DNA of 64,000 bases, from the NCBI RefSeq assembly GCF_057098645.1, contig NZ_CM169472.1; one strand, 5' to 3'. Both the position numbers and the translations under genes were made by a program. Shown here piece after piece: positions 46,422-47,166 of this stretch (its first letter is position 1; each line of letters begins with the position of its first letter). Under the pieces are notes generated by a model. The model searched no databases, was not told the DNA's origin, and was given only the letters and a program-made list of their open reading frames with translations.

Positions 46422-46608
46422 ATTCATTCCGTATGGGAATTCCCATATCGGGCAAAAACGGTTTGCTGTAAAGCGAGAGTTAAGTAGAATTGCTGCGGGT
46501 GCTTGAGGCTGTCTGCCTCGGGCATGCCGCCGTAAGGCAGACAGAGAAAAGCCCCAGTTAACATTACGCGTCCGGCAAGACGCTTAACATTAATCTGAGG
46601 CCATATCT

Positions 46609-46668
46609 ATGCGACACATAGAGATTAGCCTCTTACGGACCGAAAGGTCAAGGAGAAGCAGGCTATGA
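46609..46668 (+). CDS. 19-codon leader ORF (mok-like) coupled to hok
   Basis: ATG 46609...TGA 46666-46668 overlapping the hok ATG (cTATGAag). Confidence 0.4.
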   Translation: MRHIEISLLRTERSRRSRL

Positions 46669-46820
46669 AGCAGCAAAAGGCGATGTTAATCGCTCTGATC
46701 GTCATCTGTTTAACCGTCATAGTGACAGCACTGGTAACGAGGAAAGACCTCTGCGAGGTGCGAATCCGAACCGGCCAGACGGAGGTCGCTGTCTTCACAG
46801 TCTACGAACCTGAGGAGTAA
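46665..46820 (+). CDS. hok: Hok/Gef-family type I toxin
   Basis: 51-aa product MKQQKAMLIALIVICLTVIVTALVTRKDLCEVRIRTGQTEVAVFTVYEPEE, near-identical to Qin HokD (RelF) as recalled. Confidence 0.85.
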   Translation: MKQQKAMLIALIVICLTVIVTALVTRKDLCEVRIRTGQTEVAVFTVYEPEE

Positions 46821-46888
46821 GAGACCAGGCGGGGGAGAAATCCCTCGCCACCTCTGATGTGTCAGGCATCCTCAACGCACCCGCACTT

Positions 46889-46910
46889 AACCCGCTTCGG
46901 CGGGTTTTTT
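46889..46910 (+). terminator. terminator of the hok transcript
   Basis: aacccgcttcggcgggtt hairpin followed by TTTTTT. Confidence 0.5.
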
Positions 46911-47166
46911 GTTGTGCAGCGTAGTTGATTAGCTTTTTGTGTACTCCTTTGGTTGTGGTTCTTGAGGGGCCGTTTGGAGTAAATAGAATCATATTACTTA
47001 GTTAGCGCGCAGGGAGAAGAGGGAGGGACCCCGAACAGGGGAGTGCTATTTATCTGGAAGGATTCTGTTGATGAAAATCGAAGAATTACGTGAAATTTTT
47101 AGTGAAGATGGCCTCTACACTGCGTGAACCGCCCCGGGTTTCCTGGAGAGTGTTTTATCTGTGAAC

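Follow-up and report, generated by a model that had tools for sequence, protein, structure and literature searches.

A hokD-type hok/sok locus with a 19-codon leader in a lambda-like prophage of Shiga-toxin-type Escherichia coli

Genes and setting of the locus

The window (the whole stretch of 64,000 nucleotides analysed here) includes part of a lambda-like prophage of Shiga-toxin-type E. coli, in which a hok-type toxin gene follows a very short open reading frame (ORF). Prophage genes for Cro/CI, YdaT, a DnaT-like protein and P-type replication lie upstream of this locus, while those for DUF968, RusA, a Q-type antiterminator, holin and lysozyme lie downstream. The genes concerned, their Shine-Dalgarno (SD) sequences and the nearest insertion sequence are as follows.

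46597–46600, + strand: leader SD, GAGG, 8 nt 5' of the ATG at 46609; masked by the ucb element in the full-length fold
46609–46668, + strand: leader ORF of 19 sense codons (MRHIEISLLRTERSRRSRL) with a TGA stop at 46666–46668 that overlaps the hok ATG (ATGA); it occupies the position of mok in R1 and of mokW in phage 933W
46650–46655, + strand: hok SD, AAGGAG, read from the sequence and conserved relative to 933W, Rac, an R1-type locus and K-12 hokD
46665–46820, + strand: hok (hokD-type) toxin gene, 51 aa, MKQQKAMLIALIVICLTVIVTALVTRKDLCEVRIRTGQTEVAVFTVYEPEE; named hokD by RefSeq in an identical copy
47125–48434: IS629, 1310 bp, with matching inverted ends

A Hok/Gef-family toxin had been predicted at 46665–46820 from the sequence alone, and the match of the 51-residue product to the Pfam family HOK_GEF (PF01848; 78.6 bits where 22 is the cut-off, E=2.6e-22) bears this out. 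Alignment with hokD/relF and with plasmid hok/sok, put forward as a check in the original prediction, showed the toxin to be 98% identical to K-12 HokD and its leader elements to align with those of an R1-type locus; identity to HokW of phage 933W/Sp5 is 92% and to the Hok of R1 40%. E. coli O145:H28 RM12761 carries a stretch with 100% identity to 46400–46950, in which RefSeq calls the gene hokD, and 4718 complete E. coli genomes out of 5426 contain similar DNA. Since it is annotated, ubiquitous and provided with a characterised close homologue, the locus is already known, as one more ordinary copy of the hok/sok toxin and antisense-RNA antitoxin module.

Two observations on the coding sequences may be recorded here. 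The hok gene of the window retains a UACG motif, the context for A-to-I editing by TadA, at its Tyr47 codon (46803–46806); Tyr-to-Cys editing at the equivalent position has been reported for the K-12 hokC, hokD and hokE mRNAs, at about 6% for hokD (PMC12214031). Just 5' of the hok promoter, a hydrophobic ORF of 34 aa (MSDDISLVMEGALAVIAVVGVYCLVVFLMDRLGN, 46317–46421) is carried by RefSeq as a hypothetical protein, and a Pfam search with it gave no match.

The locus had been described as sitting immediately upstream of an IS629-like element. The element is indeed present downstream but not immediately so: it begins 213 nt past the hok terminator, outside the hok transcript, and leaves the hok locus intact. 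Within 47071–48434 it interrupts a rem homologue at about codon 18 (MKIEELREIFSEDGLY, compared with MMNIEELRKIFCEDGLY in K-12 Rem). No target-site duplication was found at its flanks (left ...CTGCG, right CCTTC...) and the IS-free RM12761 sequence does not resume beyond it, which together suggest an IS-associated deletion or recombination. The junction between hok and IS629 occurs in 3–4 of 5426 complete E. coli genomes, and this copy is a rare, strain-specific insertion in rem rather than a part of the hok locus.

The same prophage region holds further Rfam matches at gathering level, namely a C4 antisense RNA (37300–37387, minus strand), isrK (37412–37488, minus strand) and DicF (37723–37774, minus strand), as well as an STnc100 (49365–49554, plus strand) which directly abuts AgvB (anti-GcvB; 49555–49616, minus strand).

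The hok mRNA, its antisense RNA and their predicted folds

The regulatory elements were placed by alignment with 933W, a Rac-type phage, an R1-type IncFII plasmid and K-12 hokD, complemented by the folds and scans named below.

46462–46490, + strand: hok promoter, read from the sequence (-35 TTTGCT at 46462–46467, 17-nt spacer, -10 TAGAAT at 46485–46490)
46497–46912, + strand: predicted full-length hok mRNA of 416 nt, with the 5' end GGGUGCUUGAGG and a 3' end past the terminator T-run
46497–46508, + strand: tac (translational activator) at the mRNA 5' end, its pairing partners taken from the folds
46549–46555, + strand: ucb (upstream complementary box, or anti-SD), AGCCCC, which in the folds pairs with the leader SD (full-length) or with tac (truncated)
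46627–46636, + strand: conserved AGCCTCTTAC box, which includes dcb (CCUC, 46629–46632) and, on the opposite strand, part of the Sok -10 and spacer
46828–46849, + strand: stable 3'-UTR hairpin of the predicted folds, a likely protector of the 3' end of the processed mRNA
46870–46882, + strand: fbi (fold-back inhibitory), CCUCAACGCACCC, paired with tac in the full-length MFE structure
46889–46912, + strand: intrinsic terminator of the hok mRNA
46651 to 46622, - strand: predicted Sok promoter (-35 TTGACC at 46651 to 46646, 18-nt spacer, -10 TAATCT at 46627 to 46622)
46615 to 46547, - strand: predicted Sok of about 69 nt, its coordinates derived from alignment with 933W sokW and from promoter geometry

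Both promoters were placed through homology rather than by the consensus scan, which reported neither of them at its threshold of 9/12. In the alignment, the hok -10 falls on the -10 region of the R1-type locus, and the hok loci of 933W and Rac have exactly the same -10. The mRNA 5' end at 46497 coincides with the start of an Rfam match and aligns with GGCGCUUGAGG of the R1-type locus. At the other end, the terminator anticipated by the original prediction was recovered in the scan as a 7-bp stem (46889–46906) with five GC pairs, followed by TTTTTTG up to 46912. A weak resemblance of the hok 3' UTR to isrK (30.5 bits, below the Rfam gathering score of 50) was set aside as chance, its similarity to the genuine isrK at 37412–37488 being confined to the terminator. 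The AGCCTCTTAC box, which recurs across genera, served as the search pattern for related loci.

The Rfam match just mentioned is to RF01794 ('sok') and extends over 46497–46667 on the plus strand, at full model length (105.9 bits, E=1.3e-24; gathering score 59). Although the family is labelled as the sok antitoxin, the match does not lie on the Sok-encoding strand: it covers the sense hok leader and finishes on the three letters of the hok AUG. Because the match is on the plus strand and ends at that codon, what the model recognises is the leader of the hok mRNA in sense orientation, with the complement of Sok inside it, and strand calls made from RF01794 need to be inverted or reinterpreted. 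This match, together with a predicted mRNA fold at z=-6.8 against shuffles, confirms that the leader holds folding elements of hok type, as had been read from its palindromes. All sequence-level characters of the hok/sok family were found at this locus, as was each of the cis elements that define the R1 paradigm, Sok being a predicted RNA with a putative promoter.

An antisense RNA on the minus strand near the leader had likewise been expected, and sokW homology supports its prediction; its ends, which could not be placed from sequence alone, are put by the same homology at 46615 to 46547. The predicted RNA consists of a 5' tail complementary to the leader ATG region, a long hairpin and then GGGGCUUUU, and its strand folds, with a U-run after the hairpin, at -32.5 kcal/mol (z=-5.3). 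The Sok -10 matches consensus at 3/6 positions, and the promoter as a whole is homologous in position to that implied by the 5' end of 933W sokW. As it falls below the threshold of the consensus scan, we infer Sok transcription in the window from homology. The idea that the Sok 5' end, which is the hypervariable 15–18 nt past the leader ATG, varies between hok loci of one genome as a means of avoiding cross-talk found no support and was dropped: within-genome pairs were identical in 6 of 21 cases and different in 15 of 21, against 11.6% identical overall, a comparison which duplicated contigs may confound.

When successive forms of the transcript were folded (46497–46540, 46497–46852, 46497–46868 and full length), the results, which are thermodynamic predictions only, matched the three states of the R1 model (PMC9841398). 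In the nascent RNA, tac pairs with 46516–46528 to form a 5' hairpin. The full-length mRNA (-174.2 kcal/mol) has its first 12 nt, the tac, paired with fbi, and the leader SD paired with ucb at 46552–46555. Once the 3' end is trimmed (46497–46868), tac pairs with ucb at 46549–46555, the leader SD with dcb at 46629–46632, and the hok SD is unpaired. The hok AUG remains within a long-range helix (46660–46674 with 46788–46803, the AUG opposite 46796–46797) in both the full-length and the trimmed folds.

In the 128 distinct alleles searched for support of these helices, the one covering the hok AUG is 98.9% paired and the tac–fbi helix 99.2%; because the latter is nearly invariant, covariation is uninformative among close relatives, and its support there is conservation, not covariation. 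Relative to R1-type loci it contains one compensatory exchange, a U-A pair in the window corresponding to C-G there, and each tac prefers its own 3' UTR over a foreign one (-18.7 kcal/mol for tac with its own, -16.4 for a foreign tac). Compensatory changes among the 128 alleles were found in three hairpins, those of 46509–46544, of the Sok terminator and of the 3' UTR (46828–46849), the last of which is 97.8% paired and has three pairs with double-sided changes.

The leader ORF and its phase among relatives

The short leader whose stop overlaps the hok start was correctly foreseen, at 46609–46668 and with 19 codons ending in the ATGA overlap. ORFs of this length are unremarkable per se, dozens of similar size occurring in the ORF list of the window; the leader is significant because its position is homologous to that of R1 mok and because its SD, ATG and openness are conserved in relatives. 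In R1, 19 mok codons precede hok and mok has to be translated no further than the hok start: mutations in mok's start codon, as well as stops upstream of hok abolish Hok, while stops downstream do not (PMC9841398).

Relatives were drawn from two samples, one of at least 157 non-redundant hokD-type prophage loci from IMG/VR and one of at least 94 distinct Hok-like loci from species-representative genomes. Among the matches listed, 150 of 157 prophage loci have both the leader SD and the ATG, and they fall into the following classes by the distance of the leader ATG from the hok ATG, the counts again being among the matches listed.

-57: in frame with hok, 70 aa, annotated 'MokW'; 109 of 157 loci
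-56: 19-codon form, as in the window; 28 of 157 loci
-58: R1-like overlap, 68 aa; 10 of 157 loci
-55: 67 aa; 1 of 157 loci

In all, an R1-like overlap is counted in 11 of 157 prophage loci among the matches listed. The phase classes arise from two recombining modules: one is the hypervariable stretch that follows the ATG, 15, 17 or 18 nt long, and the other a hairpin of 12 or 13 nt. The 19-codon class is found on 19 distinct flanking backgrounds among the matches listed, and in E. coli prophages it has essentially one variable-region sequence there; it is therefore one lineage in these prophages and could in principle be a tolerated frameshift. Each of the 28 distinct leaders among the matches listed (28/28) is free of stops in its own frame and has at least one stop in each of the others, and a variable region of 16 nt, which would bring the conserved TAG of TTAGCC into frame, was not seen among the matches listed. 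In a small sample of related sequences, this openness and the missing 16-nt length are suggestive only.

The genome loci among the matches listed have leaders in phases 0, 1 and 2 in 32, 28 and 17 cases, respectively, and 4 of 77 leaders across genera end before the hok ATG. Among the same matches, a 19–20-codon leader ending in AUGA recurs in Photorhabdus, Pantoea, Citrobacter and Pseudocitrobacter, and the leader SD, ATG and openness are kept over four length classes and across genera. The stop-on-start leader of 19 codons, the one unusual trait of the locus, is a common natural variant. Species of Photorhabdus generally have many hok copies, the 19-codon AUGA class included, and the chromosome of Photorhabdus thracensis carries six tandem hok loci in about 4.5 kb (1475–5918), each with a different variable region.

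Judged by this variation, neither the leader peptide nor its phase seems to be under constraint, whereas translation as far as past the hok SD does. The leader almost always stays open through the hok SD whatever its phase, which fits the R1 data, where only the first ~19 mok codons matter (PMC9841398). The natural alleles amount to an evolutionary replicate of the R1 mutagenesis, in that leader translation matters and its product does not. This phase polymorphism is a modest comparative observation. No systematic description of it was found in the literature searched, although Pedersen & Gerdes 1999 and Steif & Meyer 2012 ('The hok mRNA family') may cover it; a 2026 census expressly set the analysis of mok aside (bioRxiv 10.1101/2025.08.07.668861). 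The polymorphism further prompts one to ask which role the in-frame 70-aa 'MokW' fusion predicted from most prophage alleles might play. In-frame leaders, such as those of 933W (mokW/hokW, 756–968) and of an IncFII locus with the Hok of R1 (344–559), would give a Hok extended at its N-terminus to 70–71 aa.

Interpretation and comparison with known systems

The best explanation of the whole is a hokD-type hok/sok locus with an R1-style mRNA switch and a 19-codon leader as its mok homologue, a reading to which we assign a probability of roughly 0.85. We read the leader of the window as a minimal mok, on which a translating ribosome would unwind the helix that covers the hok AUG and stop at that codon, and we infer that leader and hok are coupled by termination and reinitiation. 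Toxicity of this Hok and its neutralisation by Sok are probable by analogy, both being known for the homologous hokW-sokW (PMC8621323) and for R1.

Given the sequence elements, the homology and the alternative folds described above, transcription, processing and toxicity would presumably take the following course. A weak promoter would give the 416-nt hok mRNA (46497–46912), whose 5' tac would be held in a local hairpin while the chain is nascent. In the completed mRNA, pairing of tac with fbi would close the molecule, and the leader SD (46597–46600) would be masked by ucb. Slow trimming from the 3' end would then strip off the terminator and fbi, allowing tac to move to ucb and the leader SD to a weaker stem with dcb. 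Where Sok is present, this ~69-nt RNA would bind the leader initiation region of the trimmed mRNA, block it and trigger decay by RNase III; where Sok has decayed, ribosomes would translate the 19-codon leader. A leader ribosome would run through the hok SD into the helix that buries the hok AUG (46660–46674/46788–46803) and end at the UGA of AUGA, and hok would be initiated at the overlapping AUG. Hok would finally enter the inner membrane and kill or lyse the cell. The biological role could be to assist lysis when the prophage is induced, as hokW-sokW does, to retain the prophage or to exclude other phages. Against the preferred reading stands that earlier tests of chromosomal hok loci showed no post-segregational killing (summarised in bioRxiv 10.1101/2025.08.07.668861).

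A bolder extension is that mok acts as a natural 'phase-free' coupling device, and that the AUGA class of the window is functionally distinct, working by termination-reinitiation and owing its origin to the 1-nt insertion that also retunes the Sok promoter (-35 TTGCCT with a 17-nt spacer in 933W, TTGACC with 18 nt in the window). Its toxin/antitoxin balance would then differ from that of hokW-type alleles. We advance this as a tentative idea and think it rather improbable.

The foremost rival account takes the locus for a decaying, non-functional chromosomal hok relic, in which a frameshifted mok, a weakened Sok promoter and a nearby IS are marks of erosion, as at K-12 hokA, hokC and hokE. Sister alleles do mostly have a 70-aa or 68-aa leader, and the 19-codon class is a single lineage in E. 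coli prophages, among the matches listed; against the notion of a damaged leader, however, the same matches hold this allele in 28 of 157 loci on 19 distinct flanking backgrounds and show 19–20-codon AUGA leaders recurring independently in the four other genera, and mok past the hok start is dispensable in R1 (PMC9841398). The absence of a target duplication at IS629, 213 nt downstream, might be taken as a sign of decay, but the element lies outside the mRNA and its junction with hok is restricted to 3–4 of 5426 genomes. The Sok promoter, with its 3/6 match at the -10, 18-nt spacer and escape from the scan, fits erosion, and K-12 chromosomal hok loci have been reported inactive (PMC12214031; bioRxiv 10.1101/2025.08.07.668861); yet all cis elements are intact, the predicted switch works, and an unbroken ORF encodes a Hok with 98% identity to HokD. 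We consider decay improbable on balance.

It is conceivable, too, that the leader is untranslated or irrelevant, hok being read directly from its own SD (46650–46655) and Sok acting through RNase III cleavage alone. That SD is strong, well spaced and unpaired in the truncated-mRNA fold; the hok AUG, however, is paired with 46796–46797 in both folds, in a helix 98.9% paired over the 128 alleles. Neither the sequence of the leader peptide nor its phase is conserved, but its SD, ATG and openness are, over four length classes and several genera, and variable regions of 15, 17 and 18 nt occur and one of 16 nt (in-frame TAG) does not, all among the matches listed. Mutations of the mok start codon, moreover, abolish Hok in R1 (PMC9841398). 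We regard direct reading as very improbable indeed. Inactivation of hok by IS629, of the kind seen at K-12 hokA/C/E, is ruled out by the position of the element, 213 nt past the terminator and in rem.

For the window itself little is gained by the preferred reading, the R1-style switch with a mok-like leader, as it adds one more annotated hokD-type module in a STEC-type prophage; the practical gain is a correct annotation of the parts that PGAP omits, namely the leader ORF, Sok and the mRNA ends.

Among known systems, hokW-sokW of 933W (Sakai Sp5) shares the lambdoid prophage setting of the window, with 91.6% identity over the locus DNA and 92% in Hok. It has been established experimentally as a toxin/RNA antitoxin pair with partial dependence on RNase III and Hfq and as an aid to lysis after induction, and an effect of a sokW -10 mutation has been demonstrated (PMC8621323). 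Promoter, tac, ucb, Sok region, dcb, hok SD and fbi are common to both loci. The annotated sokW, a minus-strand RNA of 71 nt in the homologous position, begins 8 nt into mokW and extends to 62 nt 5' of the mokW ATG. The leader ATG of 933W is found at -57 and in frame with hok, giving a 70-aa MokW, whereas that of the window lies at -56 and its ORF stops on the hok ATG; between the two, the variable region of the window is 2 nt shorter and its hairpin 1 nt longer, this 1-nt insertion being the one that alters the Sok -35 and spacer. The 933W sequence (~1040–1075) diverges right after fbi and is without the terminator hairpin found in the window (46883–46912), the Rac-type phage and K-12 hokD, so that the 3' end of the hokW mRNA must form differently.

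The hok/sok (parB) locus of R1 has its elements in the same order, from tac through the metastable hairpin, ucb, Sok target, mok SD and ATG, dcb, hok SD, hok, 3' hairpin and fbi to the terminator. As in the window, the leader runs for about 19 codons before hok begins, which is the part of mok that R1 requires (PMC9841398). The two differ in that their Hok proteins are only 40% identical, that R1 mok has 70 codons and overlaps hok in another frame while the leader of the window ends at the hok AUG, and that hok/sok of R1 is a plasmid stabiliser while the locus of the window resides in a prophage.

The nearest toxin relative compared is K-12 hokD (relF) of the Qin prophage, with 98% identity, the same 3' UTR including fbi and terminator, and the same downstream neighbour, rem. 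Homology to it begins only at the hok SD, the promoter, tac, ucb, Sok and leader being replaced by relBE. K-12 hokD is known to have been rearranged behind relBE, which fits homology from the hok SD onward, and relative to it the window holds the complete, unrearranged form.
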